This document shows, piece by piece, positions 7,685-64,000 of a stretch of DNA of 64,000 bases. This DNA is from an uncultured delta proteobacterium (GTDB lineage: Bacteria; Desulfobacterota; Binatia; HRBIN30): contig CAVSQF010000022.1 in assembly GCA_963729835.1 (NCBI GenBank), positions 296,150-360,149 of the forward strand. The letters are read 5' to 3'. Below the pieces are notes generated by a model. That model ran no database searches. It was not told the origin of the DNA and saw nothing but the letters and a program-made list of their open reading frames with translations. The translations under genes and the position numbers were made by a program. Every line of letters begins with the position of its first letter. Within the stretch, counting starts at the first letter, position 1.

Positions 7685-8989
7685 ATGGGGGCGCAGCTGA
7701 CCCGATTCTGGCGTTGGATCACCTGGACGTGGAGCCCGGCAAGCGAGCGCGAAGCCAGCAGCGCGATTGTCGAGAACCTCTGGCTGCATTGGTTTCCGGC
7801 GAAAGTCGCCGAAGACAGCTTCACATGGAGTTACTCTCTCTGGCTCGGAGCGATTGCGGCCTTTCTGTTCCTCATCCTGACCGTGACCGGCGTGCTGCTG
7901 ATGTTTTTCTACGTCCCCTCGACCCAGCAGGCGTACTGGAGCATCAAAGACATCCACTACGTGGTCGGGTTCGGGTGGGTGCTGCGCAACCAGCATCGCT
8001 GGGCGGCCCACTTGATGGTGTTGGTGGTCTTTCTCCACATGCTGCGTGTTTTCTTCACGGGCGCCTACCGGGCGCAGCGCAGCGTGAACTGGCTCGTCGG
8101 TTTGGCGTTGCTGCTGCTGACCTTGTTCCTTTCCTTCACGGGCTATCTGTTGCCGTGGGACCAGCTGGCGTTTTGGGCAGTCACCGTCGGCACGAACATC
8201 GCCAAGGAAGCACCGTTGGTGGGGGCGGGGCTGCGGTTCGTCCTGCTCGGGGGAACGGAGATCGGCCAAAGTACGCTCGTGCGCTTCTACGTGCTGCACG
8301 TTGTCGTCTTGCCCGCGGCCGTGTTGGTGCTGTTCGCGTACCATATGTGGCGTATACGCCGCGATGGCGGCATGGCCGTCACCGACCCGGCTGCAACGGG
8401 CACCGCTCCCGTTGGTGGTGGGGCTCCGGTTGCTGGGAAGACCTACTCACTCTTCGGCATCACACCGGGGACCACCCTGGAGGTGCGTGCGGCCGGACCG
8501 CGCGATGAGGAGGACTCGGCTTTTTCATCACCCCACATGCTGCGGCGGCTGATGCTCGTCTTTCTCGGCGTGTTCACAATCACCATCGTTCTCAGTGTGC
8601 TTTCCGGAGCACCGCTGGAAGAGCCGGCGAATCCGGCGCTGACGCCGAACCCGGCGAAGGCGCCGTGGTATTTCTTGTGGCTGCAGGAGCTGGTGGCGAT
8701 TACCACGATTCGGTTGGGCGGGTTGACCCTCAGTGGGGGTCTTGTCGGTGGCATTTTGGTGCCCGGGATCCTGCTAGCGGCGGCGGTCGTCTGGCCATTT
8801 CTTGATGGCAGCCCGCTCCAGGTCATCGGCAAATGGTTCCCGCGGGAGCGCCGCGTGCAGAATACGGTGCTTGGGATCATCGCCTTCGCGATTCTGATCC
8901 TGGTGTTGATCGGCATGCTCATGCGCGGGCCGTATTGGCAGCTCTTCTGGCCCTGGCAAGCGTGGCCGGAGTTGCCACGCAGGTTGTAG
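7685..8989 (+). CDS. cytochrome b (b6-like N-domain fused to subunit IV-like C-domain)
   Basis: 434 aa polytopic protein with conserved cyt b blocks (WGAIAAFLFLILTVTGVLLMFFY, RNQHRWAAHLMVLVVFLHMLRVFF, LPWDQLAFWAVTVGTNI) and heme-ligating His pairs. Confidence 0.9.
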   Translation: MGAQLTRFWRWITWTWSPASEREASSAIVENLWLHWFPAKVAEDSFTWSYSLWLGAIAAFLFLILTVTGVLLMFFYVPSTQQAYWSIKDIHYVVGFGWVLRNQHRWAAHLMVLVVFLHMLRVFFTGAYRAQRSVNWLVGLALLLLTLFLSFTGYLLPWDQLAFWAVTVGTNIAKEAPLVGAGLRFVLLGGTEIGQSTLVRFYVLHVVVLPAAVLVLFAYHMWRIRRDGGMAVTDPAATGTAPVGGGAPVAGKTYSLFGITPGTTLEVRAAGPRDEEDSAFSSPHMLRRLMLVFLGVFTITIVLSVLSGAPLEEPANPALTPNPAKAPWYFLWLQELVAITTIRLGGLTLSGGLVGGILVPGILLAAAVVWPFLDGSPLQVIGKWFPRERRVQNTVLGIIAFAILILVLIGMLMRGPYWQLFWPWQAWPELPRRL

Positions 8990-9000
8990 CGGGTCGGACG

Positions 9001-10209
9001 ATGACCGGTCGCTTCCTTCACAACCGAGATTTCTGGCCGCTGCTGATCGCGTCGGTCGCTGCTTTAGTGGTCGTGCTCATCGTGGCATTCCGTGAGTACA
9101 CGCCGGAATGGCAGCACCGTATGGAGGCCTTTCGCAGTTATCTGCGCGGGCGCGGCGCGTATGATGCGGCGTCGACCGTGCCCAATACCGTGCAGCAGAT
9201 CTGGCTGCCGGCACTGGATCGGGTCGATCGTTGCATCAGCTGTCATGTCAACTACGATGCGTCGATTTCGGCGCTGCCCGATTTGCCGCCGCTGCACCGG
9301 TCGCATCCGGACCTGCCCTATATGGCGAAGCACCCCTTTCCCACCTTCGGGTGCACCGCGTGCCACGGCGGCCAAGGCTACGCCCTCGATCAGGCCGGGG
9401 CGCACGGCCTCGTGGAGCACTGGGATGATCCGCTGCTGAGCACCGCGCTGGCAACGCAGTACGGCCTCACGCGTGCGCAGCTGATGGAAACCAAGTGCAA
9501 CACCTGTCACCGGCGCGATGATTCGACGGCCGGAATGGATCTCATCAACATGGCCAAGGAGATCTTCGACAAGAAACGCTGCGTGTCGTGCCACGGCTTG
9601 CAGGGCGGCGGCGGGCTGGCCTCGTCGGACCTGACCTACGACGGCGACGTCAACCCCGAGCTTCTGGACTTTTCCAACGTGTCGGGTCCGAAGACGAGCT
9701 TGAACTGGGAGATCCAGCATTTCAAGAGTCCGCAACAGGTCGTGACACGCAGCGGCATGCCGAACTACCGGTTGAACGATGAGCAGGCGCGGGCGTTGGC
9801 GCTGCTGATGTTGAGTTGGCAGCGGGTCAGCTTCCCGCCCGAGTACCTCCCGGCAGCACGGCGGCGCCCACCGGCCGTGCTGCCGATTGTGCGCGAGGTG
9901 GCGTATCCCCCGCCGGCGACGACGGATGCGGGAAAGGAAGGCCGCTATGTGTTCAGCAATCGAGGTTGCAACACCTGCCATCGGGTCGGGGGCGGGAATT
10001 TGATTGGTCCTGATTTGGCAGCGGTCACGCAGCGGCGCAACGACAAGTGGCTCGGCACTTGGCTGAAAGATCCGGCGGCGGTGGTGGCGAAGGACCCGGC
10101 ACTGCAAACCTGGTCGCACGAGTTCGGCGACATCATCATGCCCAACCAGAATCTCAACGACGAGGAGATCGCAGGGCTGATCGCCTACATGCACGAGTTC
10201 CCAGAGTGA
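9001..10209 (+). CDS. membrane-anchored pentaheme c-type cytochrome (c subunit of the bc complex)
   Basis: ATG 9001 lies 12 nt after the cyt b stop. N-terminal TM (WPLLIASVAALVVVLIVAF). Five CxxCH motifs: CISCH, CTACH, CNTCH, CVSCH, CNTCH. Confidence 0.85.
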   Translation: MTGRFLHNRDFWPLLIASVAALVVVLIVAFREYTPEWQHRMEAFRSYLRGRGAYDAASTVPNTVQQIWLPALDRVDRCISCHVNYDASISALPDLPPLHRSHPDLPYMAKHPFPTFGCTACHGGQGYALDQAGAHGLVEHWDDPLLSTALATQYGLTRAQLMETKCNTCHRRDDSTAGMDLINMAKEIFDKKRCVSCHGLQGGGGLASSDLTYDGDVNPELLDFSNVSGPKTSLNWEIQHFKSPQQVVTRSGMPNYRLNDEQARALALLMLSWQRVSFPPEYLPAARRRPPAVLPIVREVAYPPPATTDAGKEGRYVFSNRGCNTCHRVGGGNLIGPDLAAVTQRRNDKWLGTWLKDPAAVVAKDPALQTWSHEFGDIIMPNQNLNDEEIAGLIAYMHEFPE

Positions 10210-27081: not shown

Positions 27082-28122
27082 ATGCGGTCATCACTAGTTG
27101 TGATCAACGGTCCGATTGATTCCCGTGCGCGGCGCAGCCGATCGACGCTCGCATGGCTTTGGGTGGTGAGTGTCGCGGTGCTTCTGGGCTTGCTTCCGGC
27201 GAGCCACTCGCAGGCGGCGGTCGACATCGCAGCGCAGGAAGCCTTTCTGCGCACCGCGCCGGGCGGCGGCGATGAAGTGACCACACCGGCGGTGGGCCAG
27301 ACCGTCTACTTCCACGTCGGCTTTCAGCTGACGGGGCCCGCGGGCTCGGTGGCGGTGAGCCAGCGTGCGTTGCTCGATGGGGCTGAGTTCTGCGCCTTCA
27401 CCGAGGACACCACTCCCGGCGATTGGTTCTCCTGGTGTCTCGACGGCTGGACGGCCACGGCGGGGACGCACACGCTGCAATGGGACCTCGACTACACGAA
27501 CACGGTGGCGGAAACCAACGAGAACAACAACTCGGTCTCCACGACGTGGACGAGCGGCGGGCCGACATCGACGCCGACGCCGGGCAGCGGAGTGGATATC
27601 GCGGCGCAGCGCGCGTTTCTGCGCACCGCGCCGGGCGGCGGCGATGAAGTGACCACACCGGCGGTGGGCCAGACCGTCTACTTCCATGTCGGCTTTCAAT
27701 TGACGGGGGCCACGGGCTCGCTGGCAATCAGTGGGCGAGCGCGATTGGATGGCGGCGACTTCTGCACGTTCACCTCGGACATCACAACCGGCACCTGGAC
27801 GGCGTGGTGCACCGGGGGCTGGACGGCGACCGCGGGGACGCACACCCTGCAGTGGGACCTCGACTACACGAACCAGGTGGCGGAAACGAACGAGAACAAC
27901 AACTCGGCCGCCACGACGTGGACGAGCGGCGGGCCGACCTGCGTTGGCGATTGCAATCACAGCGGCGAGGTCACTGTGGGCGAGCTCGTCACCATGGTGA
28001 ACATCGCCTTGGGCAGCGCGGCGTTATCCGCCTGCCCGGCCGGTGACGCCGATGGCAGCGGCACCATCGAGATCAACGAGATCATCGCCGCCGTGAACAA
28101 CGCCCTGGACGGTTGCCCGTGA
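27082..28122 (+). CDS. secreted protein with two tandem CARDB-like domains and C-terminal dockerin-like double repeat
   Basis: SD AAGGAG. Signal peptide. Two ~125-aa repeats ([38 protein letters not shown]...[22 protein letters not shown]). C-term [25 protein letters not shown]...[21 protein letters not shown]. Confidence 0.7.
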
Positions 28123-40191: not shown

Positions 40192-40262
40192 GGTTCCCCT
40201 CCTTACGAAGGAGGGGTCAGGGGAGGTTTGGAATGCCGCGATGCTTAACCTCCCCCTCGCCT
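40192..40262. repeat. GGTTCCCCTCCTTAC(C/G)AAGGAGGGGTCAGGGGAGGTTTG repeat, copy 1
   Basis: Palindromic core CCCCTCCTT-ACGA-AGGAGGGG followed by TCAGGGGAGG. A partial inverted partner CCTCCCCCTCGCC lies 20 nt downstream. Second copy at 42961-43045. Confidence 0.65.
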
Positions 40263-42960: not shown

Positions 42961-43045
42961 GGGTTCCCCTCCTTACCAAGGAGGGGTCAGGGGAGGTTTG
43001 AGAAGGCCGCTCTACCTCCCCCTGACCCCCTCCTTCGAAAGCAGG
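42961..43045. repeat. GGTTCCCCTCCTTAC... repeat, copy 2, arranged as ~85-bp perfect-ish hairpin
   Basis: GGGTTCCCCTCCTTACCAAGGAGGGGTCAGGGGAGG ... CCTCCCCCTGACCCCCTCCTTCGAAAGCAGGGGGAAC: the two arms are reverse complements. Confidence 0.65.
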
Positions 43046-51773: not shown

Positions 51774-52720
51774 CGCGGGCCGGCGGCGACGCCGGGCGGA
51801 CACGCGGCATCGAGGCGCGCCAGGTCCTCGGCGGAGAGCCGCACGTTCAGCGCGCCGAGATTCTCCTCGAGATACTGCCGGCGTTTCGTGCCAGGGATCG
51901 GAACGATGTCCTCGCCTTGGGCGAGTACCCATGCCAGCGCCAGCTGCGCCGGCGTGCAGGCCTTGGCTGTGGCGATCTCTTCCACGCGCGCCACTAGCGC
52001 CAGATTCTTCGCGAAGTTCTCCTCCTGAAAGCGCGGCGAATAGCGGCGGAAGTCATCCGGGGCGAGATCCTCGAAGCGTTTGATCCGACCGCTGAGGAAC
52101 CCGCGGCCGAGCGGGCTGTAGGGCATGAAGCCGATGCCGAGCTCGCGGCACGTCGCCAGGACGGCCTCCTCCGGATCGCGGGTCCAGAGCGAGTATTCGC
52201 TTTGCAGGGACGTGATCGGATGCGTGGCGTGGGCGCGCCGCAAGGTCTGCGGGCCCACCTCCGACAGCCCGATGAAGCGCGTCTTCCCGGCACGCACCAG
52301 CTCCGCCATCGCGCCCACGCTCTCTTCGATCGGCACCTGTGGGTCGACGCGGTGGAGCTGGTAGAGGTCGACATGGTCGACACCCAGGCGGCGAAGGCTC
52401 CCGTCGCACGCCGTGCGGATGTACTCGGGACGGCCGTTGATGCCACGCAACGCGCGGTTGTTCGGATCCCGGACGATGCCGCACTTCGTTGCCAGGACGA
52501 CCTGGTCGCGCCGCTCGCGGACGGCACGCCCGACCAACTCTTCGTTGGTGTGTGGGCCGTAGGCGTCCGCGGTGTCGAGCAGGGTGACACCGAGGTCGAG
52601 AGCGCGATGAATCGTTGCGACCGCTTCGGCCTCATCGGCCGGTCCGTAGAACTCGCTCATTCCCATGCAGCCGAGGCCGATGGCGGACACCCGCAGTGTC
52701 CCGAGCACGCGCGTTTGCAT
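51737..52720 (-). CDS. aldo/keto reductase
   Basis: [33 protein letters not shown]..., [17 protein letters not shown]. Upstream part of track ORF is artefact. Confidence 0.85.
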
Positions 52721-53448
52721 CTGGTCTCCTCTTGTAAGAGGCTCACATTCTGTCACGCGGCAGGGCGGAGCGGAATACGGGGTGAGCAGCGCGTCTTTCA
52801 GGGAGAGATCCGGCGCCTGAAATCGCGGCCATCGCAGACGACGGCCAATTGACAGACGCAGCCGCGACGGCGTCGGAAGATCAAGCGAGTGGCCAATCAG
52901 GGGCCCGCTGCTCCTCCGGCGCCTTTCTTTATCGAACGCAGATGCGCAAGGGGCTGCTGAAGAAGCCGCCGGCCTCGATTTGCGGCCATCTGCGTCACCC
53001 TCCTGCGCAGCGGCGTGAGGGCACGCCGGCTCCAGAAAGCACACTCTTTCGGCAACCTTCTTCGCCCGTCTTTCTGAACGCCACGGGAAGGCACCTCGTG
53101 GAGGAGTGGAACTGATGTGCGCGCTGGCAGTGCGGCACGGTCTGACCATCTTCACGACCGACTCCGACTTCACCCACTATGCCAAAGTCCTTCCGATCAA
53201 ACTGCACGTGCCGTCGCAACCATTGGTGGCCGGCGAGTCTACTCCGGCATGAGTCCCTTTTGAATTGACATTTCGCTCCGGGTCAGAGTACTAGGAACCG
53301 ACGAGCGCCTTGACGCTGCGGCGAAGTACATGTGCTACGCCCGAGCCCGTGCGTGAGGGGTAGGTCTCGCGGAGACAGCAGGAAGGCGAGCGGAGAAGGG
53401 TTCTGAGGTAACATCAAAACACAACCGCTGACGAGAGGAGAGAAGATC

Positions 53449-55016
53449 ATGAAGAGGTCCCCAAAAAGCAAGAAAAAAGTATCCGCAGGGTTAACGAGGC
53501 GAGACACAGTGAAGCTTGCAGGCTTGGCCCTGGGCGGGCTGGCAGTTGGGGGTGTAATGGGCTGTGAGGGGTCGGGCAAGGCCCGCGCGCAGCAACAATG
53601 CGGCGACAACGGCTGCAACTACCCGGTGCCCCCTGATACCACGCAGGAGTATCTCTACCCTAACGGTCTAGGCGTGTTTACGCCGGACACGCCGCTCGAT
53701 CCTGATGAGATGCGGATCACATTTCTCGGGACAGCGTTCCCTCCCTTACGGCGGGCACAACAGATGATGAGCATCTTCGTAGAGGTGGGCCCGTGGGTCC
53801 CAGTCCCAGGTGGACCCGGCAAAGCGACGGACTCCTTCGTCTTCGACTGCGGCTCGGGTCGTTACCAATTACAGCGCCATGGGGATTTCGCCAAGCCGGA
53901 TGGACAAGATCTTCATCTCGCATCTTCACGCCGACCACATGAGCGACCTGAGCGCAATCTACTGCTTCGGCCCCTCACGAGACCGCAAGTGCCCCCTGTA
54001 CGTTTGGGGACCGGGGCCTTCGGGCGTGAAAAATCCCAGAGCACCGGCCCGCTGTACTACGATGACGGCACCAACGATTTCTGCGATAACCTCCGGAAAG
54101 CCATGCGGTGGCACTCGGAGAGCTTCAGCTTCCTACCGACGAGCTACACCAATTACCAATGGCATTCCCACCCAGCAGAGTTGGGGACTGCCGTGCGATC
54201 CGGTCCCCGTCGGAGACGATCGCTCCGGATGACGGCTACGCCCTGGTCCCCATCGAGCTGGACTGGACGAAGTACGGCAAGAACGGCAAGAGGGACAATG
54301 TCGCCTACAACAACCCGACAACGGGCGTGAAGATCACCCACTTCCCGGTGGTCCATGCCAGAAAGGGTTCCATCGGCTACAAGCTCGAGTGGAACGGCCT
54401 GACCATGATCTACACGAGTGACACCCGGCCCGAAACCCGCTGCATCGACCAGGCCAACAACGGAGGCAAGGGCGTGGACGTGTTCATCCACGAGATGATC
54501 CTTCCGCCGGAACTGTTGACCATGAAGAATTATCCGGGCTTAACGTCTCCGCCGCCGCCGGGTACGAACCCTGCAGCTCTTGATGCCGCCGTCCAGTATA
54601 CGACGAATGTCGAAGACAGCTCCCACACTCCACAGGGGGCCTTCGGGTACCTCCTCAGCCAGATAAATCCTCGTCCGCGGCTCACGGTCATCGCGCATTT
54701 TCCAGCGGCCGACGATACCGTCGCATGTGCCATGAACAGCGTCCAGGCACACTTCCCGAATGGCGGCTACCCGGTGTTGGGTAGGGATATCATCTGGTCT
54801 ACGGACCTCATGGTGCTGAGAGTAAAGCAGAGTGGGATCACCCAGCTCATGGGCAAGGTCTCGGATTACACGTTCAGCCCACCCGCGGACCCGTCTGCCC
54901 CCCAGGGGACTCCCAAATACCACACCGCCGACGGGCAGAGTGATCCGACCGCCCAGATCGACACGTCGACGGTGATACAGCCAGGGAACAACACCTACTG
55001 CGAGAACGGGTATTGA
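53449..55016 (+). CDS. Tat-signal MBL-fold metallo-hydrolase, reading frame broken by three single-base frameshifts (~53878, ~54045, ~54190)
   Basis: MKRSPKSKKKVSAGLTRRDTVKLAGLALGG (twin-arginine). Frame1 ...FVFDCGSG, then frame2 VVTNYSAMGISPSRMDKIFISHLHADHMSDL (HxHxDH), then frame1 GPLYYDDGTNDFCDNLRKAMRWHSESF, then frame3 APDDGYALVPIELDWTKYG... to 55016. Confidence 0.55.
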
Positions 55017-55061
55017 TGGAGGTGATATCCCCTACGGCGGATGAGTGAAGTCGGCGCCGCG

Positions 55062-56413
55062 CTACAGTCTCCGCTTGTCGACAACGCGCACCGCCTTGCC
55101 CTCGGTGCGCGCGATCTGCCGTGGGCCCACGAGCGTGACGTTGCAGCTGATGCCGAGCGCGCTGCGGACCTCGTGGCTCAGCAGTCTCTCGTGCTGAACG
55201 AGGCGATCGCGGTTCGCGCACATCTCCGCCGGTGCCTCCACGACCACCTCCAGCTCGTCCATGTGCTCGGCGGCGCGATCCACGATGATCTGATAGTGCG
55301 GCGTCACCTCGCCGACGCGCAACAAAACGGCTTCGACCTGCGACGGGAACACATTGACACCGCGCACGATGATCATGTCGTCGGTGCGCCCGACCAGCCG
55401 GTCTATGCGAACGGTGGTGCGGCCGCAGGTGCATGGCTCGCGCATCAGCCGCGTCCGATCCCGGTCCGGTAGCGGATCAACGGCAAGGCTTCCTTGGTCA
55501 CGCACGTCAGCACGAGCTCGCCCACCTCGCCGTCGGGCAGCGGCTCCGTGGTCTGCGGATCGATGATCTCCGGAATGAAGTGATCCTCGAAAACGTGCAT
55601 GCCCTGCTGCTCGCGGCATTCAAAGGCCACCCCCGGACCGATCACCTCCGACAAGCCATACATATTGAGCGCCACGATGCCGAGGCGCGACTCGATTTCC
55701 TGCCGCATACGCTCGGACCAGGGCTCGGCGCCGAAGAGGCCGATCTTCAGCGGCAGCGACGCCGGGTCGATGCCCTCGTCGTCTGCGACCTCCGCGATCA
55801 GCAGCGCGTAGGACGGCGTGCAACACAGCACCGTGCTGCCGCAGTCGCGTATAAGCGTTAGCTGCCGCTTGGTGTTGCCGCCCGACACGGGGATCACCGT
55901 GGCGCCGATGCGCTCGGCGCCGTAGTGGAAACCGAGTCCACCTGTGAACAGGCCGTACCCGTAGGCGTTGTGAACGACGTCGTGCTCGGTCACGCCGGCC
56001 GCGGCGTAGGCGCGCGCGATCAGGTCGGCCCACAGTGCAATGTCGTTCTGCGTGTAGGCCACCACCGTCGGCTTACCCGTCGTCCCGCTGGAAGCGTGGA
56101 TGCGGATCACCTCTTTCATCGGCACCGCCAGCAGACCGAACGGATAGTTGTCGTGCAGGTCGCTCTTGGTCGTGAACGGCAACCGGACGAGATCGTCGAG
56201 CGACCGGATCCGTTCCGGGAGTCCTCGCCCACCGCGCAGCTTGTCGCGGTAGAACGGAACCGTCTTCGACAGCCGATCGATGCCGGCGCGCAGACGCTCC
56301 AGTTGCAGCCGTTCCAAGTCTCGCCGCGGAAGGCGCTCCACCTGGTCGCGAATGGCGGACCTGATTGCCGGCGTAGGCGTACGGCCCGGGCCGGCCGCGC
56401 TCGTCTCGTGCAT
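55062..56413 (-). CDS. paaK: phenylacetate-CoA ligase family (PaaK / F390 synthetase-like), one frameshift in a G-run at ~55453
   Basis: [15 protein letters not shown], then ...LIRYRTG | [15 protein letters not shown]...[17 protein letters not shown] continues in the -1 frame. Restoring one G in CCGGG(G) gives continuous IRYRTGDRTRL. Confidence 0.75.
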
Positions 56414-57021
56414 CAGACCACTCCGCTCACGGCGTGCGGCGCCATCTGCCGGATCCGAAGAGCCCCAAGCTGCAGTGCGCGCAGGTTCATATCGACCAGA
56501 TCTTTTCTCCTTCTGGCGAACATCTCCGAGACTGCCGCCCGCAGCGACTCCGGCCTGACGCCCACAAACTCCGACGCGGCCCCGATCAGGACGATGTTTT
56601 GCGCGCGCGCGGTTCCTGCTTCTCTCGCCACCGTAGCCGCATCGATCAGGTACACCTTGCGACCGCAGCCCTGCAGCAGCTTCATCAACTTCTCACGCGG
56701 CGGGTAGTCTGGAATATTCTCGACGGTGGCGCTGTTTGTCACGATCAAGCCGCCGGGCGACAGGTAATCGATGTTCCGCAGCGCCTCGAGCGGTTCGGTT
56801 GCGAGAATGAGATCGGCGCGGCCCTTCGGAACGAGGTTGCTGAACAACGGCCCATCGGAGAGGCGCACATGGGCTTCAACCGCCCCACCGCGCTGGCTCA
56901 TCCCATGCACCTCCGCCTGCCGGACGTTCAGCCCCTCGCGCACGGCGGCATTCACGATCAGCACCGCCAGCGTGAGGATGCCTTGTCCGCCGACGCCGGC
57001 CAGAACGATATCCCGCTTCAC
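56413..57021 (-). CDS. iorB: indolepyruvate:ferredoxin oxidoreductase beta subunit (IorB)
   Basis: GTG start after [33 protein letters not shown]; 202 aa. Stop overlaps paaK ATG (ATGA). Confidence 0.75.
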
Positions 57022-57025
57022 CGTT

Positions 57026-57134
57026 CCTCACCGTTTCCGCGCCAGGTGGATGCACTTATGGGCATGCTTCGCGTGGTGACTCACGGGGTCTTGGTACCAT
57101 CAGTGCCGCTGCTTGTGCAACGAGAATGCGGCTC
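57026..57134. repeat. cassette-boundary repeat, copy 1 (CCTCACCGTTTCCGCGCCAGGTGGA ... GGGGTCTTGGTACCATCAGTGCCGCTGCTTGTGCAACG)
   Basis: Conserved 25-bp left box and ~50-bp right box flank a variable middle. Copies at 57026, 59291, 61030. Confidence 0.8.
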
Positions 57135-57484
57135 AGTGGATAGTTCCTACAAACGGGGTAATTGCCATAAGGGCTACCTATCAGACGTTCCCGTCATCCC
57201 GGATCTGCCCCGGAAAATTCCGGACGCCCTACGGAAAGCGCGGTGAGTGCCAAACGGGGTTGGGTTTTGTTTGGCGCGAAACCGGCGCAGTCCGAAACGC
57301 CCGTCCGAGCCCGGCTGAGCGGCGTCCACCCGGATGAGGGCGGAGTAATGAAGAAGAAAAAGGAACAGAGAAAAAAGGACGGGAACAGCTCGAAGCGGTC
57401 TTTGGGGGCCGGCGCTTTACTCTCCCCTAAGTTACGAGGGCGAGATCTCAGATCCGAGCGCAAAGGGTACTTGTACCCTGGTCC

Positions 57485-59164
57485 TTAGGGCGCCGCCGTT
57501 GCTGGTTCAGGTAGTTGAGCGTTTTTCCGAGCATTGCAGCCGCGATGAGCTAGCTGCCCATTCTCAGGGACAGTTTTCCCGCCCTTACTGTAGGGGATGA
57601 TGTGATCGACGGTACTATCATCCAGCGAGTGAATTTCATTCTTGCAGAGCTGACACACGGGGGACTTGTCGTACAGATTCTTCCTGAACTCAAAATCGAA
57701 GAAACGTGGCTCGATCAAACTGCCATCGATGATGGGCTGGACGAGTCCGCGAAACTTGGTCCATCGGAGTTTTGTCTGCGCAGTGCTACCGGTTCGTTTC
57801 GAAATAGCATCCTGCATCTCCACGTCCGTTAACATCGTTAGCAGGAACAGCTCGCGAATCTGTTCCGCCGCCTGTTGGACTTTAGCCGCTTGCTGATTCA
57901 TTAACGCTGACGCCTGAATGTCAAAGGCTGTCACGGAGAATCTCATGTCCCAGCTGCCCTTGTTCGTGCGTGGATTGACTTCGTAAAGTCTGGCAGCCTT
58001 GTCGCCGAAAACTGCGTAGATGTTCTGCATAGTTTGCCTGAATAGCGTTGCATGGGCTTTTAGTTGTTGGTCGTCCCGTGGAGCGTATTGCTCCATATAT
58101 TCGTTGAGGAACCTCTTAAGGTTTCCAGTATAGCTGTTCAGCCTGTTTGCAAAGGCAAAGAAACGTAGAATCATTTCCCGCTCCTTGAATCGCCCTTCAG
58201 GTCCATCTCCTCCCTTGGACTTCCGCCAGTATGTGTCCTGTTCCAGTTCCGCAAGGAGGTCATTGAACGGTCCGCGATAGACGCAGTTCCGAAGTTCTTG
58301 CTCGTTCAGCGTCATCGAACCACGGTTCAGGCGCTCAAAGACCTCATACCGGAGCTCCGTGTTAACCCCGGCATCGATGACGATGCTCCGAATGGGGGTA
58401 TCCAAAATCTTTTCTTGTTGCTGTTTGGTGAGGTCCCGGAAGAACTTGTGATTAAGGCTGGCCATTCGGTGCAATTTCCGAAGGGGAAACTTGTTCAAGA
58501 CGAAGTTCACAAGGGTCGTGAGACGTTGCTGGCCATCGATCATCTCCAGCCGCCCATCGCTAACTTTTCCGAAATAGATTGGCGGGATCGGGATTTCGAG
58601 CAGCAATGATTCAATCAAACGTGAAGGCAGTTCGGGGCGCAAGTTCCAGACGTATTCTCTTTGAAACTTGGGTTGAAGATCCAGTTGCCCTCTGTCCAGC
58701 TTGTCCCTAAGAGCCGAGATCGTCCAGTCAGAACTCTGGCTCATTACAGGGCGATCATCGGGTTTTCCAATAGGTTGCTCTTCCTCTTGATCCGGTTCTA
58801 GCTGATCCTCTGAAAGTGTTGGCTCTTCAGCTTCGCCGTTGCCAGCACTCGCAGTGACAGATGCTGACGGCGAATTCTGCGAACTTGAGGCTTCGTGATG
58901 GGTCGGTGGGGTATTGGCTTGCTTGCTTGCGGTAGTTGGAACCAAAACGAAGCGAACCAGCTCGTCGATTCCCGCATCGTCCAGCATCGGGTCAGTTTCT
59001 AGGCCAAGACCTGCCATAACAACTTTAATATCGGAAAGAACATTGGCCCCACGCCTGGAGGCCCCAAACCACTTGAGGACTGCGCGAACCTTGTACCTCC
59101 TGGGAACTTCCCCGTTCTTCAATTGCTGTGCTACTTCGACAATTCGTTTTGGAGCCTCGTTCAT
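57485..59164 (-). CDS. DUF262 (ParB-like) + C-terminal HNH nuclease, GmrSD/SspE-like defence protein
   Basis: DGQQRLTT (DUF262), acidic low-complexity linker, C-terminal VDHIIPYSKGGKTVPENGQLAHRGCNARKN (HNH). Region is visibly lower in GC than flanks. Confidence 0.75.
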   Translation of the reverse strand: MNEAPKRIVEVAQQLKNGEVPRRYKVRAVLKWFGASRRGANVLSDIKVVMAGLGLETDPMLDDAGIDELVRFVLVPTTASKQANTPPTHHEASSSQNSPSASVTASAGNGEAEEPTLSEDQLEPDQEEEQPIGKPDDRPVMSQSSDWTISALRDKLDRGQLDLQPKFQREYVWNLRPELPSRLIESLLLEIPIPPIYFGKVSDGRLEMIDGQQRLTTLVNFVLNKFPLRKLHRMASLNHKFFRDLTKQQQEKILDTPIRSIVIDAGVNTELRYEVFERLNRGSMTLNEQELRNCVYRGPFNDLLAELEQDTYWRKSKGGDGPEGRFKEREMILRFFAFANRLNSYTGNLKRFLNEYMEQYAPRDDQQLKAHATLFRQTMQNIYAVFGDKAARLYEVNPRTNKGSWDMRFSVTAFDIQASALMNQQAAKVQQAAEQIRELFLLTMLTDVEMQDAISKRTGSTAQTKLRWTKFRGLVQPIIDGSLIEPRFFDFEFRKNLYDKSPVCQLCKNEIHSLDDSTVDHIIPYSKGGKTVPENGQLAHRGCNARKNAQLPEPATAAP

Positions 59165-59290
59165 GCATCACCTCCGTGCTTGGTCGCAGTGGCGTTTTGT
59201 GCGTGTTCTCGTTCTCGACCAGAGCATTCGGTCGCAGCTGGACAATCTTAGATCAACGGCCGGACAGTTGCCGCGTCCCCGTCCCGCGCC

Positions 59291-59408
59291 CCTCACCGTT
59301 TCCGCGCCAGGTGGAGCCACTCCCGCTGCGCGACGCATCCTTCATACAATAGACGCCCGGGGTCTTGGTACCATCAGTGCCGCTGCTTGTGCAACGTCAA
59401 CGCGACCC
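59291..59408. repeat. cassette-boundary repeat, copy 2
   Basis: Same left and right boxes as copy 1; longer variable middle. Confidence 0.8.
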
Positions 59409-59614
59409 ATGACTTCGTGACTTCGGGGACGATGGCACCTTCGGTACGTTTCGCCGGTGATTCGTATCAAGAGTGCCATCGTCCGTGGATCGCGCTGGAT
59501 CGCAACGTCCCTGGATCGCAACAGGGGTTTCTCTACGCTGACCAGTTGATCCAGGCTGCCGAGCGCGACGGAACGGGTGCTCCAACCGCACCTCCCAATA
59601 TGCTAGAAGCCATC

Positions 59615-59857
59615 ATGCCGACGGTATTCACAAAGGAGGGATTTCGCTTTCACTTCTACAGTAACGAGCGCAACGAGCCGCCGCACATTCATGTCACGGG
59701 CAAGGGCGGCGAGATGAAGATTTGGCTCCCCTCGCTGACCGTCGCGTTCTCCTTCGGCTTGTCGCCGCCCGCCCAGCGACGAGTCGTAGAGATCACCCAC
59801 GAGAATATGACACTACTCATGGAGCGTTGGAATGAGTTTAGCCGCAAGAAGAACTAG
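59615..59857 (+). CDS. DUF4160 family protein
   Basis: MPTVFTKEGFRFHFYSNERNEPPHIHV matches the DUF4160 core (..F.FYSNDHNPPHiHv). Confidence 0.7.
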   Translation: MPTVFTKEGFRFHFYSNERNEPPHIHVTGKGGEMKIWLPSLTVAFSFGLSPPAQRRVVEITHENMTLLMERWNEFSRKKN

Positions 59858-60074
59858 AAGTTACCCGGCGATTGTCGGCGCGAGCGTCAGCGCGGACCAA
59901 CTGACGGCGAAGCTGAGCGACGGCCGCGAGGTGTCGGTGCCGCTGGCGTGGTTTTCACGCTTGCTGAATGCCACTCCGGCACAACGAAGGAGGCTCGAGA
60001 TTTCGCCTGGAGGATACGGTATTCACTGGCCTGAGATTGACGAAGATATCAGTGTGAAGGCGTTCCTGGATTGA
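59832..60074 (+). CDS. DUF2442 family protein
   Basis: LSDGREVSVPLAWFSRLLNATPAQRRRLEISPGGYGIHWPEIDEDISVKAFL matches DUF2442. Overlaps the DUF4160 gene end (typical pair). Confidence 0.7.
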   Translation: MSLAARRTRSYPAIVGASVSADQLTAKLSDGREVSVPLAWFSRLLNATPAQRRRLEISPGGYGIHWPEIDEDISVKAFLD

Positions 60075-60127
60075 CGAAACGCGGGCAACCTCGGCGAAGG
60101 ACCGACGCGGCGTAACCTACCGTTTGC

Positions 60128-60562
60128 CTACGGCGCGACCACGGTGAAGCCACCGAACGTGGCAAAATCGCGCGCGTTCGTAGTCAGCACGGAGGAGATG
60201 CCTGCGCTGCGGAACGTGGTGGCCAGCATCGTGTCGAGCACGCGCTTTCGCCCGAGCTGGTGCGCGCGCATCCAGTCGAGAAACAGCCGCATCGCCTCGG
60301 CGTCCGGGGTAACCTGCTCGATCTCGGGCGCGTTCCACCAACTCTCCGCGCGATCCAATGCCTCGCCCATTGGCAGCGGCTGGGAAAACCGCTTTGCATC
60401 GGTGACCACATGGACAAACTCCGCGAGCACCTGCGGCGTGAGCGCGAAGGTGTCTCCGGCCTGGCGCAACGCCTTCAGCTTAGCGCGAGCTGCAGAATGT
60501 TCGGCGTGCTCCGCCACTTCCGCAGCCACGAGAAAGCTCGTGTCAAAACCGTGCGTCATCGA
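60128..60562 (-). CDS. vapC: PIN-domain toxin VapC
   Basis: MTHGFDTSFLVAAE (first Asp), later D and TTNARDF motif; ~144 aa. Confidence 0.8.
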   Translation of the reverse strand, partial: SMTHGFDTSFLVAAEVAEHAEHSAARAKLKALRQAGDTFALTPQVLAEFVHVVTDAKRFSQPLPMGEALDRAESWWNAPEIEQVTPDAEAMRLFLDWMRAHQLGRKRVLDTMLATTFRSAGISSVLTTNARDFATFGGFTVVAP

Positions 60563-60761
60563 GCATCTCCGCGAGCAGATCGTCCTCCGCACTCAGCGGC
60601 CGGAGAACTTCACCCAGCCGGAGCGGCGGAAGGTCCAGCGGGCTGCGCCTCACGCCGCCGGCTTGTCGCCGCCGCGCCGAGTGCACCAGGCGCTCGAGCT
60701 CCGAAAGCTCCTTCGGGCTCAATAACGGAATCGCGGCCTCGATCTCGGCCAGTGTACTCAT
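60543..60761 (-). CDS. VapB-like antitoxin (small, overlaps vapC start)
   Basis: MSTLAEIEAAIPLLSPKELSELERLVHSARRRQ...; 20-nt overlap with vapC. Confidence 0.55.
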   Translation of the reverse strand: MSTLAEIEAAIPLLSPKELSELERLVHSARRRQAGGVRRSPLDLPPLRLGEVLRPLSAEDDLLAEMLDDARF

Positions 60762-61029
60762 GGCGCAGAACGTAGCACGCGCGCGCCGCGGTCGACAAGG
60801 CAGAACAGCTGAGCTGACAGAAACGTAGGGGCGAGTGGGACGACTTGAGAGCGAGGTGCTTGTCGGAGGGCGGACAGTTGACGCTTCATCGCCCCTCAGA
60901 GCAAATCGGGCGCCCAATGCATGACGGGCAGCCCTCTATAGACATTGCAGCGACCAACCCTGTCCTGAGCCCCGTCGAAGGAGGGAGCGGACCCGCCGCA
61001 CGGACGCCGGGCGCAGCCCTCACCGTTTC

Positions 61030-61114
61030 CGCGCCGGTTGGATGTATGACTCACGGGGTCTTGGTACCATCACTGCGGCTGCTTGTGCAACGACAATGCA
61101 ACCCAGGCGAGGAC
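61030..61114. repeat. cassette-boundary repeat, copy 3
   Basis: Same boxes; shortest middle (TGTATGACTCAC). Confidence 0.8.
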
Positions 61115-61347
61115 CACGTCCTCGACTCGATACGCCCTCACCCTAAAAGGTCTTAAACAAGACGGATGAGAAATGGAAAACCCGGAAACGGGAAACTTGA
61201 AACTATACGGCGCACGTGCATTGCCGAAATTTTCCGTGGAAAACAGGGGCGATTTCGGTGCACCCCTGGGGTGGCTTTTACCGAAAAGGTGGGCGCCTTC
61301 GGCGTCTTCTCGTAGGGAATTGTTGAGCCTCACCACCGCCACCCGTG

Positions 61348-61632
61348 TTACTGGGGACGGCGCTTTGACTTCAAGCGCTGCGCGGCGGTGTGGAGGTCGG
61401 CAATGAACTCGTCGACGTTGTCGTAGGCGCGCGACAGGCCGATGCCGGCGCGGGCGCGCGCGGCCCGGCCTTCGTCTTCCTCGGCCTTGGCGCGGAAGTA
61501 GACGCGGAAAGCCTCGCGGGTGATCTCCGAGCGGCTGCGGTGCTCGGCTTTGCGGGCGCGGTCAATCTGTCGGGCCATCGGCACGGGCATCGACACGGTG
61601 AATGCGGTGCTGCTTTGTGGGTTGCGTGGCAT
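61348..61632 (-). CDS. ribbon-helix-helix (CopG/ParD-like) DNA-binding protein
   Basis: MPRNPQSSTAFTVSMPVPMARQIDRARKAEHRSRSEITREAFRVYF is an RHH beta-alpha-alpha pattern. Confidence 0.6.
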   Translation of the reverse strand: MPRNPQSSTAFTVSMPVPMARQIDRARKAEHRSRSEITREAFRVYFRAKAEEDEGRAARARAGIGLSRAYDNVDEFIADLHTAAQRLKSKRRPQ

Positions 61633-61751
61633 AGGGTATGACCTTTTATGAAAAAGGCGTATCAATCCGACTCTTCCGACCTACGTCCCTTTTGTACTCG
61701 CGGGCAAGGTCGTGCTGTTCAATCATGCTGCCGCTGGAGTAGAATGCAGAT

Positions 61752-62732
61752 GTGGTGATTCCCGTGCGCACATTATCCATCCTCATGATTGCGCTGATCC
61801 TGGCGGTACGTTCGTCAGCCGAGCCAACGACGGCAACACCGACGCCGATTCCGACTTTCAGCGAATGCAACCCATCAGCAGACGACTGCCCGGTTGGTAG
61901 TCAGTGCCTGTGCTGTTGCGGCACGTGGATATGCATGCCGCCCTATCTACCCTGCTGCGATATTGCCTGTTTGTCGTCAATACCGACGCCGACCGCGACA
62001 CCGACACCAACTCCTAGTGCATGTGATCCGCTCATAAACAACTGCCCTCTCGGAACTACCTGCGGCTGCTGTTGCGGGGCATGGGAATGTCTGCACGGTA
62101 CCGAAATCTGCTGTGAGATCGCTTGCATGTTCCCGACACCGGTTTCCACGGCGACACCGACACCAACCGAGCCCTGCAGTGGATCGCCTTGTGGTGGCAC
62201 CTGCGTAATCTGTCCGCCGTGTACACCGGGAACGATCTGTCCGTTGGCTCCATGCGAACTTGGGCACTGCGAGTTGAGCGCCGCTGGGAGTTGTGCTTGT
62301 GCCCCCGGTCTAGCAGCAACACCCACCGCGACACCCACGCTACTGCCTGGGACCTGTATCGGCGATTGTAACGGCGATGGGGCGGTGACCATCAACGAGA
62401 TCATCCTCATGCTGAACATCACGCTGGGCAACGTGTCGAGCGCTGCGTGCCCCGCTGTCCATGGGTGGTGTCCCGAGGGGTGCACCGTCAACGACCTTAT
62501 AGCGGCGGTGAACAACGCGCTGTACGGTTGCCTGGTCGGACCACCACCGACACCAACGCCCCAGTGCAGCGAGGTGCCATGCGGAGGCTCCTGTACGATA
62601 GCGCCGCCGTGCACTCCCGGTCCCAATACCGCCTGCCCAAATTCCGTTATGCTTGGCGTGTGCGGGCTGAATCCTTTGAGTGGCTGCCAATGTGAACCTG
62701 TCGAACCGGTGACGATGAGTTCAAGTACTTAG
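61752..62732 (+). CDS. secreted modular Cys-rich protein with PT linkers and dockerin-like double repeat
   Basis: Signal peptide; modules CNPSADDCPVGSQCLCCCGTWIC / CDPLINNCPLGTTCGCCCGAWEC; ATPTPT linkers; CIGDCNGDGAVTINEIILMLNITLG...[14 protein letters not shown]. Confidence 0.6.
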   Translation: MVIPVRTLSILMIALILAVRSSAEPTTATPTPIPTFSECNPSADDCPVGSQCLCCCGTWICMPPYLPCCDIACLSSIPTPTATPTPTPSACDPLINNCPLGTTCGCCCGAWECLHGTEICCEIACMFPTPVSTATPTPTEPCSGSPCGGTCVICPPCTPGTICPLAPCELGHCELSAAGSCACAPGLAATPTATPTLLPGTCIGDCNGDGAVTINEIILMLNITLGNVSSAACPAVHGWCPEGCTVNDLIAAVNNALYGCLVGPPPTPTPQCSEVPCGGSCTIAPPCTPGPNTACPNSVMLGVCGLNPLSGCQCEPVEPVTMSSST

Positions 62733-62900
62733 CGTGTCGGACCGAGTTTCGTAGCAGTCGGACAGGTCGGACGGGGCGACACAGAGCGCTCACCTTGCAC
62801 CCCATAGTTTACTACGAGAATCGGCAGTTGGCACGCGTGGTCACCGCATTTCCAGACACAGGCACTTCAGCGACCGAGATATGTAACCGGGTATCGATGC

Positions 62901-63296
62901 TCAGCCAGGGTCGGGTTGTGGGTCGCTCCAACTGTAAGAGTTGTACAAGTCGTGAATGCTCCCGTCAGTCGTCTTCTTCTCCCACATCAGCCCCGTCTGC
63001 CTGTCCGTGATCGTTCCGTTGCCGTTATCGACGAATCGTGGCGGACAGAGCGCCGCCACATTAGCCGCCACGACACTGTCCGCCGGAATCGACGGGTCCA
63101 GCGCCCGGAAACTCGGCGGCACGGGGGTGAGCCCAAGCAACGTGCGCGCTACGTAGACGACATCCGTGGCGACATCAGGCGGCGGTCCCGAGTCGTCCAC
63201 ATCGAGCGGACACGTGGACCCGGCACCGGCACTGCGAACACCGGTCAACAAGATCAAGAACGCAGCGCCAGTAAGAACTTTGAAAAACACTTTCAT
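62901..63296 (-). CDS. secreted protein with dockerin-like motif and DUF1566-like C-terminus
   Basis: Signal peptide MKVFFKVLTGAAFLILLTGVRSAGA; DVATDVVYVARTLLGL; FVDNGNGTITDRQTGLMWEKK resembles the DUF1566/Lcl signature. Confidence 0.55.
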   Translation of the reverse strand: MKVFFKVLTGAAFLILLTGVRSAGAGSTCPLDVDDSGPPPDVATDVVYVARTLLGLTPVPPSFRALDPSIPADSVVAANVAALCPPRFVDNGNGTITDRQTGLMWEKKTTDGSIHDLYNSYSWSDPQPDPG

Positions 63297-63480
63297 GGAT
63301 TCCCTCCTTGCCAGATAAAAGTTCTTGAACTAAGGCCTGCGGCAGCATGGACTGCAGCAGCGTTTCACCTCGCACGCGTGCATTCTCCGCGGTAGCAGCA
63401 GTCTCCTTCAGATTCCGACACGGGTGTTCCACACTCTGGAGCGCGACACCCGATCACCGGGTGCGCCAAAGGAGGAGACG

Positions 63481-64000
63481 ATGGGACAGCTACGCGATCA
63501 GATGGACGGTGACTTGCGGCTCAAGGGCTACCGGCCCGTGACCCGGTACCACTACTTACGGTGCGTCGGCAGCTTTGCCGCACACCACGGACGCTCGCCG
63601 GCCACATTGGGCGAAGCGGAGATTCGGGCCTTCCTGCTCTACCTCATCCACGAGCGGCAGGCCCAACCGGCCACGGTACGGATGTACGTCGCGGCGTTGA
63701 AGTTCTTGTACGTAAACACGCTGCGTCGCCCCGAAGTGGTGGCGCATATTCCTTGGCCCCAGGTCCCGCAGCGGCTGCCCGATATTCTCACCCCCGGTGA
63801 GATCACGCAGCTGTTGAGCGCCGTGCGCTCCCTCAAACACCGGGTCGTCCTGATGCTCGCCTATGGTGCCGGCTTGCGGATCAGTGAGGTGTGCTCCCTC
63901 CAGGTCGCCGACATCGACAGTCAACGCATGGTCATCCACGTGCGCGACGGCAAGGGGGGCAAGGATCGCTACGTCATGCTGGGCGACCGACTCCTGGCGG
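63481..64000 (+). CDS. tyrosine recombinase with IntI-like N-terminal domain (5' part; continues beyond window)
   Basis: RBS AAAGGAGGAG. SPATLGEAEIRAFLLYLIHERQAQPATVRMYVAALKFLY and ILTPGEITQLL...LAYGAGLRISEVCSLQVADID...VIHVRDGKGGKDRYVML align residue-for-residue in pattern with IntI1 ([39 protein letters not shown] ; VLTPDEV...[21 protein letters not shown]...IIVREGKGSKDRALML). Confidence 0.8.
   Translation, partial: MGQLRDQMDGDLRLKGYRPVTRYHYLRCVGSFAAHHGRSPATLGEAEIRAFLLYLIHERQAQPATVRMYVAALKFLYVNTLRRPEVVAHIPWPQVPQRLPDILTPGEITQLLSAVRSLKHRVVLMLAYGAGLRISEVCSLQVADIDSQRMVIHVRDGKGGKDRYVMLGDRLLA

Follow-up and report, generated by a model that had tools for sequence, protein, structure and literature searches.

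How does the gene for the beta subunit of indolepyruvate ferredoxin oxidoreductase (IOR), iorB, come to head its operon without iorA, and what is the repeated sequence that lies flush against its start codon and recurs upstream among foreign genes? The locus belongs to an uncultured delta proteobacterium (Desulfobacterota; Binatia; HRBIN30) and lies in a stretch of 64,000 nucleotides, here called the window, at positions 296,150 to 360,149 of contig CAVSQF010000022.1 (assembly GCA_963729835.1). An earlier note, made from the letters of this DNA, took the repeats for the cassette boundaries of an array that had inserted into the operon or replaced part of it. The reading that we favour on balance, as probable though well short of certain, is that the repeats are scars left by internal deletions of iorA in a mosaic recombination hotspot, and that the array is not an integron.

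The iorB gene (56413-57021, minus strand) is intact. It begins with a GTG codon at 57019-57021 and encodes 202 residues that match Pfam POR with 138 bits and NF005324, the NCBIfam equivalog for the IOR beta subunit, with 248.6 bits against a cut-off of 222, as expected of a genuine IorB. Proteins of relatives that are annotated as IOR beta share 84-92% identity with it. The ratio of nonsynonymous to synonymous substitution rates (dN/dS) between the window and its relatives is 0.23-0.29, which gives no indication of relaxed selection, and over all pairs it is 0.15-0.29, with no relaxation in the genomes that lack iorA. The gene directly after iorB, the phenylacetate-CoA ligase-like paaK (55062-56413, minus strand), is disrupted. 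Its Pfam AMP-binding and AMP-binding_C_2 domains fall on two open reading frames in different frames, the frame switches at residue 315/316 in a tblastn alignment, and the break is a deletion of 1 nt, CCC to CC, near 55463 relative to four relatives. The same base is missing from L001, an independent Logan contig with 2 differences from the window in 2479 positions, which makes a local error of assembly an improbable cause; paaK is probably a pseudogene. A tblastn search of the whole window with the IorA proteins of three close relatives finds no iorA, except for C-terminal tails of 9-13 residues (the hits lie at 57031-57057 and 59296-59334). In species-representative genomes iorA lies directly upstream of the IorB relative in 75 of 76 informative loci, so that an iorB without iorA, as in the window, is unusual.

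The repeat is about 110 nt long and is present in three copies, at about 57026-57136, 59290-59412 and 61017-61107. Two cores, a 38-mer and a 22-mer, each have three matches where none is expected. The stretch common to the copies begins at 57026, 5 nt from the iorB GTG. The iorB-proximal end of every copy is the 3' end of iorA, consisting of its last codons and the TGA stop: nine codons (KCIHLARKR) in copy 1, 13 in copy 2 and seven (IQPARKR) in copy 3. The distal part of about 60 nt, here called X, is a conserved element found upstream of iorA in relatives, where it lies on the same strand and precedes the iorA start codon by about 110-160 nt; it has this position in five native loci (L002 and its near-duplicate L003, L004, L005 and L010) and is the best-conserved stretch of the iorA upstream region. 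Because each repeat is made of the two flanks of iorA, X and the tail, it is the scar of an internal deletion of the gene. Judged by its sequence, the copy that abuts iorB is thus a remnant of iorA, with the upstream element joined to the last codons, and not an integron site.

The details of the junctions are consistent with this interpretation. In scar 1 (minus strand) the tail, the last nine iorA codons and TGA at 57028-57057, aligns with IorA residues 527-535 by tblastn and with L010 9957-9985 by blastn, and 6 nt (57022-57027) separate the iorA stop from the iorB GTG, as compared with 5-6 nt in native loci. The head of the scar (57058-57136), which comprises X (57077-57136) and 19 nt of iorA leader (57058-57076), is 89.6% identical over 67 nt to L010 8215-8280 in a blastn alignment, a segment 98-163 nt ahead of the iorA ATG at 8378. 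The match to native upstream sequence ends at 57058, directly abutting the tail at 57057. Relative to L010, positions 8281-9956 are absent, a deletion of 1,676 nt that takes 97 nt of leader and 1,579 of the 1,608 nt of iorA. Scar 2 (59293-59412, minus strand) consists of X (59352-59412), a leader remnant (59336-59351) and the last 13 iorA codons with TGA (59293-59334), which align with IorA residues 523-535 by tblastn; the nucleotide match of the tail to relatives reaches one base further, to 59335. By blastn, scar 2 matches L005 4896-4940 and L010 8217-8255. In scar 3 (61020-61107, minus strand; blastn and alignment) X (61047-61107) is fused almost directly to the last seven iorA codons and TGA (61020-61043). 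This scar is 91% identical over 91 nt to positions 894-984 of the metagenome contig L006, where the junction is of the same type, and it has further blastn matches to L010 8216-8260 and 9961-9986. The deletion junction differs in each of the three scars, and no one of the junctions could have arisen from another by additional loss of sequence.

Of the two observations on which the earlier note was built, that iorB and paaK stand here without iorA and that a repeated unit begins flush with iorB, both are confirmed, and its reading of the iorB arrangement is partly supported: the arrangement is real and uncommon, and its cause was misread. What had been seen as a foreign cassette-boundary site is made of X and the iorA tail at its native distance of 6 nt from iorB. 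The gene was thus lost from within, through a deletion of about 1.68 kb, and was not displaced by the array; the foreign genes sit upstream of the operon's own 5' region. Residual iorA fragments, for which the note had suggested looking in 57135-57485, are absent from that interval; the tails lie inside the repeats. Two other identities for X were considered and dropped. X is in frame with the iorA tail in L006 and in scar 3, as if it were the C-terminus of a variant IorA; a chimeric query of 57 residues matched only the native C-terminus. X as the arm of an integrative element that targets the 3' end of iorA was abandoned, since in every native locus X precedes iorA. A pattern search for X gave no match in species-representative genomes and found it in one metagenome contig, L006. 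Inspection of X by eye for a sigma-54 promoter gave the right spacing on the wrong strand only, and the alignment fold of the native leader has almost no covariation.

An integron would be expected to have attC hairpins and a bona fide integron integrase, and neither is present in the window. When the three repeats are folded as single-stranded DNA, in two registers for each strand, the z-scores against shuffled sequences are -0.7 to +1.7; the repeat ends are not complementary, and there is no inverted-repeat support. R''/R' boxes were also sought by eye, and no hairpin emerged. A search of 52000-64000 against Rfam at E values up to 1 returned nothing on the repeats. The units between repeats are also not cassettes of one open reading frame with an attC site in uniform orientation, as the unit between scar 2 and scar 3 holds four genes in two orientations. 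Nor do the repeats look like duplicated attL/attR sites, which would contain only the 3' end of iorA, since each also has the upstream element X; within view there is no intact iorA at the end of the array, whose far end lies outside the window.

The only recombinase gene in view lies 2.2 kb away and belongs to what appears, from its sequence, to be the left end of an IS91-family-like element (63325-64000, plus strand), which borders the variable region. Conservation among four such elements, that of the window and three related ones, begins at TTGAACTAAG, at window position 63325, and the gene for the tyrosine recombinase starts at 63481 and runs off the window. The best family match of its 173 N-terminal residues is the integron integrase model TIGR02249, with 111.5 bits. 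A full-length relative, P0121 (286 residues, 92% identity), scores 203.5 bits, below the cut-off of 265, and matches the model in two stretches, so that the family, whose length is 286 residues, falls short of a true integron integrase. The recombinase gene of L008 and L009 is followed, after 4 nt, by that of an IS91 transposase (NF033538, 419 bits); L007 has no transposase. Most members of the recombinase family are on very short contigs, as is usual for multi-copy elements. The literature search returned nothing usable on IS91-linked tyrosine recombinases, and the association rests on the L008 and L009 contigs. A further protein of the family, P0181 (106 residues), is a frameshifted, near-identical recombinase copy whose first 101 residues are identical to those of the window and which lies on a public contig of 293.6 kb.

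The closest relatives of the operon are metagenome contigs with 84-92% IorB identity and one named genome, the Candidatus Binatia metagenome-assembled genome L010, with 90%. The native operon, as seen in L002 (with its near-duplicate L003) and L010, has an iorA of 535 codons directly upstream of iorB, followed by an intact paaK. L005 has the same genes, with iorA of the same length and paaK intact, and a dispersed repeat of 115 nt separates iorA from iorB. The operons of L002, L005 and L010 share with the window iorB and paaK at 89-93% DNA identity, the upstream element X and the junction between iorA stop and iorB start; the window differs from them in lacking 1.68 kb, nearly all of iorA, in its frameshifted paaK and in having two further scars upstream. 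In a survey of ten loci in which the pair L002/L003 was counted as one, the junction is native in L002/L003 and L010, is separated by the dispersed repeat in L005, and contains an inserted gene in L004 (cytochrome-c-peroxidase-like) and L091 (DUF2889). No iorA is present in the window, L006, L092 and L090. The gene is thus absent at 4 of 10 related loci, which have four different junctions, and these loci form no clade in trees of iorB or paaK. L006 has its scar 3-type junction next to different cargo, a DUF433/DUF5615 pair. In L092 about 95 nt of the leader remain and run into iorB at a CGGTGA microhomology; the 609 nt that this contig has upstream contain an unrelated gene, and the scar is present in only one copy. 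The earlier note had held that relatives with the same iorB-first arrangement and no array would speak against its model. Such relatives were found in part: L006, L092 and L090 all have iorB without iorA, and L092 has the unrelated upstream gene and the single scar.

The iorA-iorB junction is unusually unstable in this group of close relatives, with iorA lost at 4 of 10 loci as compared with 1 of 76 in other lineages. Since iorB remains under purifying selection despite the loss of iorA (the overall dN/dS range given above), one may ask whether IorB works with another alpha subunit. Both the L091 insert and the dispersed repeat of L005 and the window are bounded by a TGAGGG-like direct repeat, of which L004 has only a degenerate form. 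Two other features of these loci were noted. The window iorB and paaK differ from every relative by 8-12%, less than the 12-15% by which most relatives differ among themselves, and so behave as though they were central to the group or close to its consensus. In L091 the insert that parts iorA from iorB (400-760) has long inverted repeats (GGTTGAAACCGCGGCTGC ... GCCGCGGTTTCAACC) and palindromes of the GTAGGGGCGATTCGGGAATCGCCCC type.

The array itself, read along the minus strand, begins with scar 3, the dispersed repeat, the first 8 nt of iorB, the motif CAACTGTCCG and a segment of about 50 nt shared with L004. Then follow cargo B, which comprises an antitoxin-like gene with a PIN toxin and, on the other strand, the DUF2442/DUF4160 genes; scar 2, 22 nt and a second CAACTGTCCG; and finally the GmrSD_N-HNH gene, scar 1, iorB and paaK. 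Cargo A (57485-59164, minus strand) encodes the GmrSD_N and HNH protein, a candidate anti-phage nuclease by its Pfam domains and a PADLOC match to NsnA of 276 bits. Its GC content is 50-53%, as compared with about 65% in the flanks. A Logan contig, L093, is 100% identical to the window over 59297-57282 and ends where the shared tail begins. The first pair of cargo B consists of overlapping DUF4160 and DUF2442 genes (59615-60074, plus strand; Pfam 9e-18 and 8e-22). The second pair (60128-60761, minus strand), whose open reading frames and starts were read from the letters, consists of a PIN-domain toxin (60128-60559; Pfam PIN 2e-9) and a small upstream partner (60543-60761). A near-palindrome of 58 nt (59427-59484), with arms of 29 nt that are 76% complementary and no loop, lies between scar 2 and the DUF4160 gene, close to the scar on its upstream side.

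The sequences downstream of the scars differ in type. Scar 1 is followed by the L002/L010 type, scar 2 by the L004 type and scar 3 by the L005 type, which consists of the dispersed repeat and the first 8 nt of iorB. The dispersed repeat, a small intergenic sequence that serves here as a spacer (60897-61019, minus strand), has TGAGGG at both ends and matches L005 4942-5033, L004 9188-9245 and L004 687-809 by blastn. In both L005 and L004 it stands between iorA and iorB, and at L004 687-809 it comes after a hydrolase-like gene of no relation to the operon, so that it has copies at unrelated loci, as a dispersed repeat should. Its copies are about 115-125 nt long, lie directly after stop codons and occur with or without an internal insertion of 24 nt. 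Next to the spacer in the window lies a junction patch (60820-60889, minus strand) made of the iorB-start stub ATGAAGCG (60882-60889), copy a of CAACTGTCCG (60871-60880) and the segment of about 50 nt, Y, that follows iorA in L004; blastn aligns window 60887-60828 with L004 7489-7548 at 90%. Copy b of CAACTGTCCG (59261-59270, minus strand) lies 22 nt after scar 2, the same position that the motif has downstream of the intact iorA of L004, and L004 7431-7505 matches window 59335-59261. The exact 10-mer has only these two copies in the window and is found also at L004 7496-7505. One continuous L004 sequence downstream of an intact iorA therefore bridges the two CAACTGTCCG junctions of the window. 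This patchwork of iorA-downstream variants points to several recombination events at short shared sequences.

A course of events can be proposed from these arrangements. The native state would have been X, a leader of about 110 nt, iorA, 5-6 nt, iorB and paaK. Loss of about 1.68 kb, starting 19 nt beyond X and reaching iorA codon 526, would have fused the 5' control region of the operon to the last nine codons of iorA. These codons carry a Shine-Dalgarno-like GGTGAGG ahead of iorB, so that the retained tail may keep the ribosome-binding site of iorB, and X may act as promoter or operator of the operon. The genes iorB and paaK would then have remained behind their own 5' region, from which they could be expressed, and the frameshift in paaK would have been acquired since the deletion of iorA. 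Scars 2 and 3 each head what seems to be horizontally acquired cargo, a low-GC GmrSD/NsnA-like defence nuclease in one case and toxin-antitoxin-like pairs in the other. The extra partial copies of the iorA locus may have arrived with foreign DNA from related strains and been stitched in by homologous and microhomology-mediated recombination at the unstable junction, with the iorA bodies lost afterwards, if that was the order of the recombination events. As a whole, the region is best understood as a mosaic island, with defence and toxin-antitoxin genes, at an operon junction that is unstable.

Several observations weigh against this proposal. Three scars with three junctions in one genome would need three former copies of iorA or the import of alleles that were already deleted. 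The X copies from loci without iorA (scars 1-3 of the window, L006 and L092) share two substitutions, TTGCAC in place of TTGCGC and CCCCG in place of CCTCG, that native X does not have; as the iorB genes of these loci form no clade, this hints that the scar moves as a unit. X of the window is 100% identical over 56 nt to that of L006, even though their iorB genes differ by 12%. The window copies all begin within a few nucleotides of the same 5' boundary, which random recombination would not predict, and the outer boundaries of the three are nearly the same. A sigma-70 consensus scan of X found no promoter. Only a single assembly shows scars 2 and 3 in tandem, and the genome may have an intact iorA past position 64000 or at some other place. 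The shared substitutions, the identity of X with L006 and the common boundaries keep alive a reading based on site-specific recombination or on a mobile unit.

In its simplest form, this reading takes the repeats or CAACTGTCCG as the sites of an unrecognised site-specific recombination system that captures cargo at the iorA locus and does so by a route other than attC hairpins, perhaps with the nearby tyrosine recombinase. We consider it unlikely, if by a small margin the least unlikely of the alternatives. Besides the boundaries and the conserved X just described, it would account for the two CAACTGTCCG junctions, which resemble reciprocal products of an exchange with an L004-type site, for cargo of a kind typical of integron cassettes, and for an Xer/IntI-superfamily recombinase 2.2 kb away. 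It does not fit repeats that are the flanks of iorA itself, with varying internal junctions and no secondary structure, nor a 10-mer that occurs only twice in the window, and the company that the recombinase family keeps, IS91 transposases and mostly short contigs, suggests a multi-copy element instead. A bolder form of the idea, to which we give rather little credence, is that the scar (X and iorA tail) is a portable promoter-bearing recombination module of Candidatus Binatia-like bacteria, which moves between genomes and heads captured gene sets, and that together with the CAACTGTCCG junction it forms an integron-like capture array without attC hairpins or integron integrase. If the scar does move as a unit, this would be a new way of assembling gene arrays.

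A similarly unlikely route is IS91/ISCR-type capture, in which rolling-circle read-through from the element at 63325 would yield circles with cargo and a piece of the iorA locus that re-enter at the scar by homologous recombination and duplicate it. A comparable duplication, that of the 3' conserved segment in complex class 1 integrons, has been attributed to ISCR1, which is IS91-like. The IS91-like element of the window directly borders the variable region, and the repeated unit is a segment of the host and not a dedicated site, as such a model predicts. Only one copy of the insertion sequence is visible, though, and it lies beyond the scars at the far end instead of between them; the transposase gene and other end of the element would lie outside the window, and the end that faces the array may be either of the two.

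An assembly artefact, in which the assembler chained strain variants that share a scar and each real genome has one scar only, is quite improbable. Both L001 and L093, which are short-read contigs, break off at the start of the repeated sequence and neither spans the repeats, which is consistent with repetition in the reads, and scars 2 and 3 are seen in this one assembly. Scars 2 and 3 nevertheless each precede sequence other than iorB and so must be real in some genome; the join of the scar 2 tail to the GmrSD-like gene is confirmed by L093, and the join of scar to iorB is confirmed in other samples. The model implied by the earlier note, in which an array integrated into the 3' end of iorA, displaced the intact gene to its far side and left the repeats as duplicated attachment sites, is highly improbable: each repeat does hold the 3' end of iorA, and the far side of the array falls beyond the edge of the window, but duplication of an attachment site cannot join the iorA upstream element directly to the tail, and relatives lose iorA without any array.

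The scar array nevertheless resembles several known systems. Like a chromosomal integron array with its IntI, attI and attC, it has short similar repeats between small unrelated genes that are horizontally acquired, toxin-antitoxin and defence genes among them, and a tyrosine recombinase gene at one end that points away from the array. It differs from such arrays in that its repeats are not imperfect hairpins and derive from the flanks of a deleted metabolic gene, that its recombinase lacks the length and score of IntI and is linked to IS91 transposases, and that its units are multi-gene and in both orientations. Evenly spaced repeats between small accessory genes, next to an Xer/IntI-like recombinase, can therefore mimic an integron, which calls for caution in integron calling. 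With complex class 1 integrons that carry ISCR1 it shares an ordinary backbone segment that is repeated around captured genes, copies of that segment that are variably truncated, and an IS91-family element alongside. Here, in contrast, the repeated segment is a deletion scar of a metabolic operon in three copies, the single visible insertion sequence does not lie between the copies, and the rolling circle is only a proposal. Hotspots for defence and genomic islands, and tandem elements at the 3' end of a gene such as ICESt/CIME at fda in Streptococcus thermophilus, have in common with the window a fixed position with strain-specific cargo, direct repeats that include the 3' end of the neighbouring gene, and defence and toxin-antitoxin genes as cargo; in the window the repeats also hold the upstream region of the gene, the target gene is gone and no integrase dedicated to the site is evident.

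Between scar 3 and the IS91-like element lie three further genes of the variable region. A CopG-like RHH protein is encoded at 61348-61665 (minus strand; Pfam RHH_1). A Cys-rich secreted protein (61752-62732, plus strand), which has no family match, has Thr/Pro linkers and repeated ...INEII..VNNAL.GC motifs; the same motif is found at 28073-28117 in another gene, 34 kb away. A small protein with a signal peptide (62901-63296, minus strand) also has no family match, and the IS91-like element begins 29 nt upstream of its start codon. On the other side of the operon, two long overlapping open reading frames of 293 and 302 codons at 53449-55016 (plus strand) lie in different frames and resemble a single frameshifted gene; neither has a Pfam match, and the first has a twin-arginine-like signal. 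An open reading frame of 48 codons at 53106-53252 (plus strand), downstream of the operon, has no Pfam match, and its end resembles by eye the C-terminus of a PIN-domain toxin, of which it may be a remnant. Further away, a sequence of 39 nt (GGTTCCCCTCCTTAC.AAGGAGGGGTCAGGGGAGGTTTG) occurs twice, at 40192-40230 and 42962-43000; the two copies are 2.8 kb apart and 97% identical, and each contains a short hairpin.

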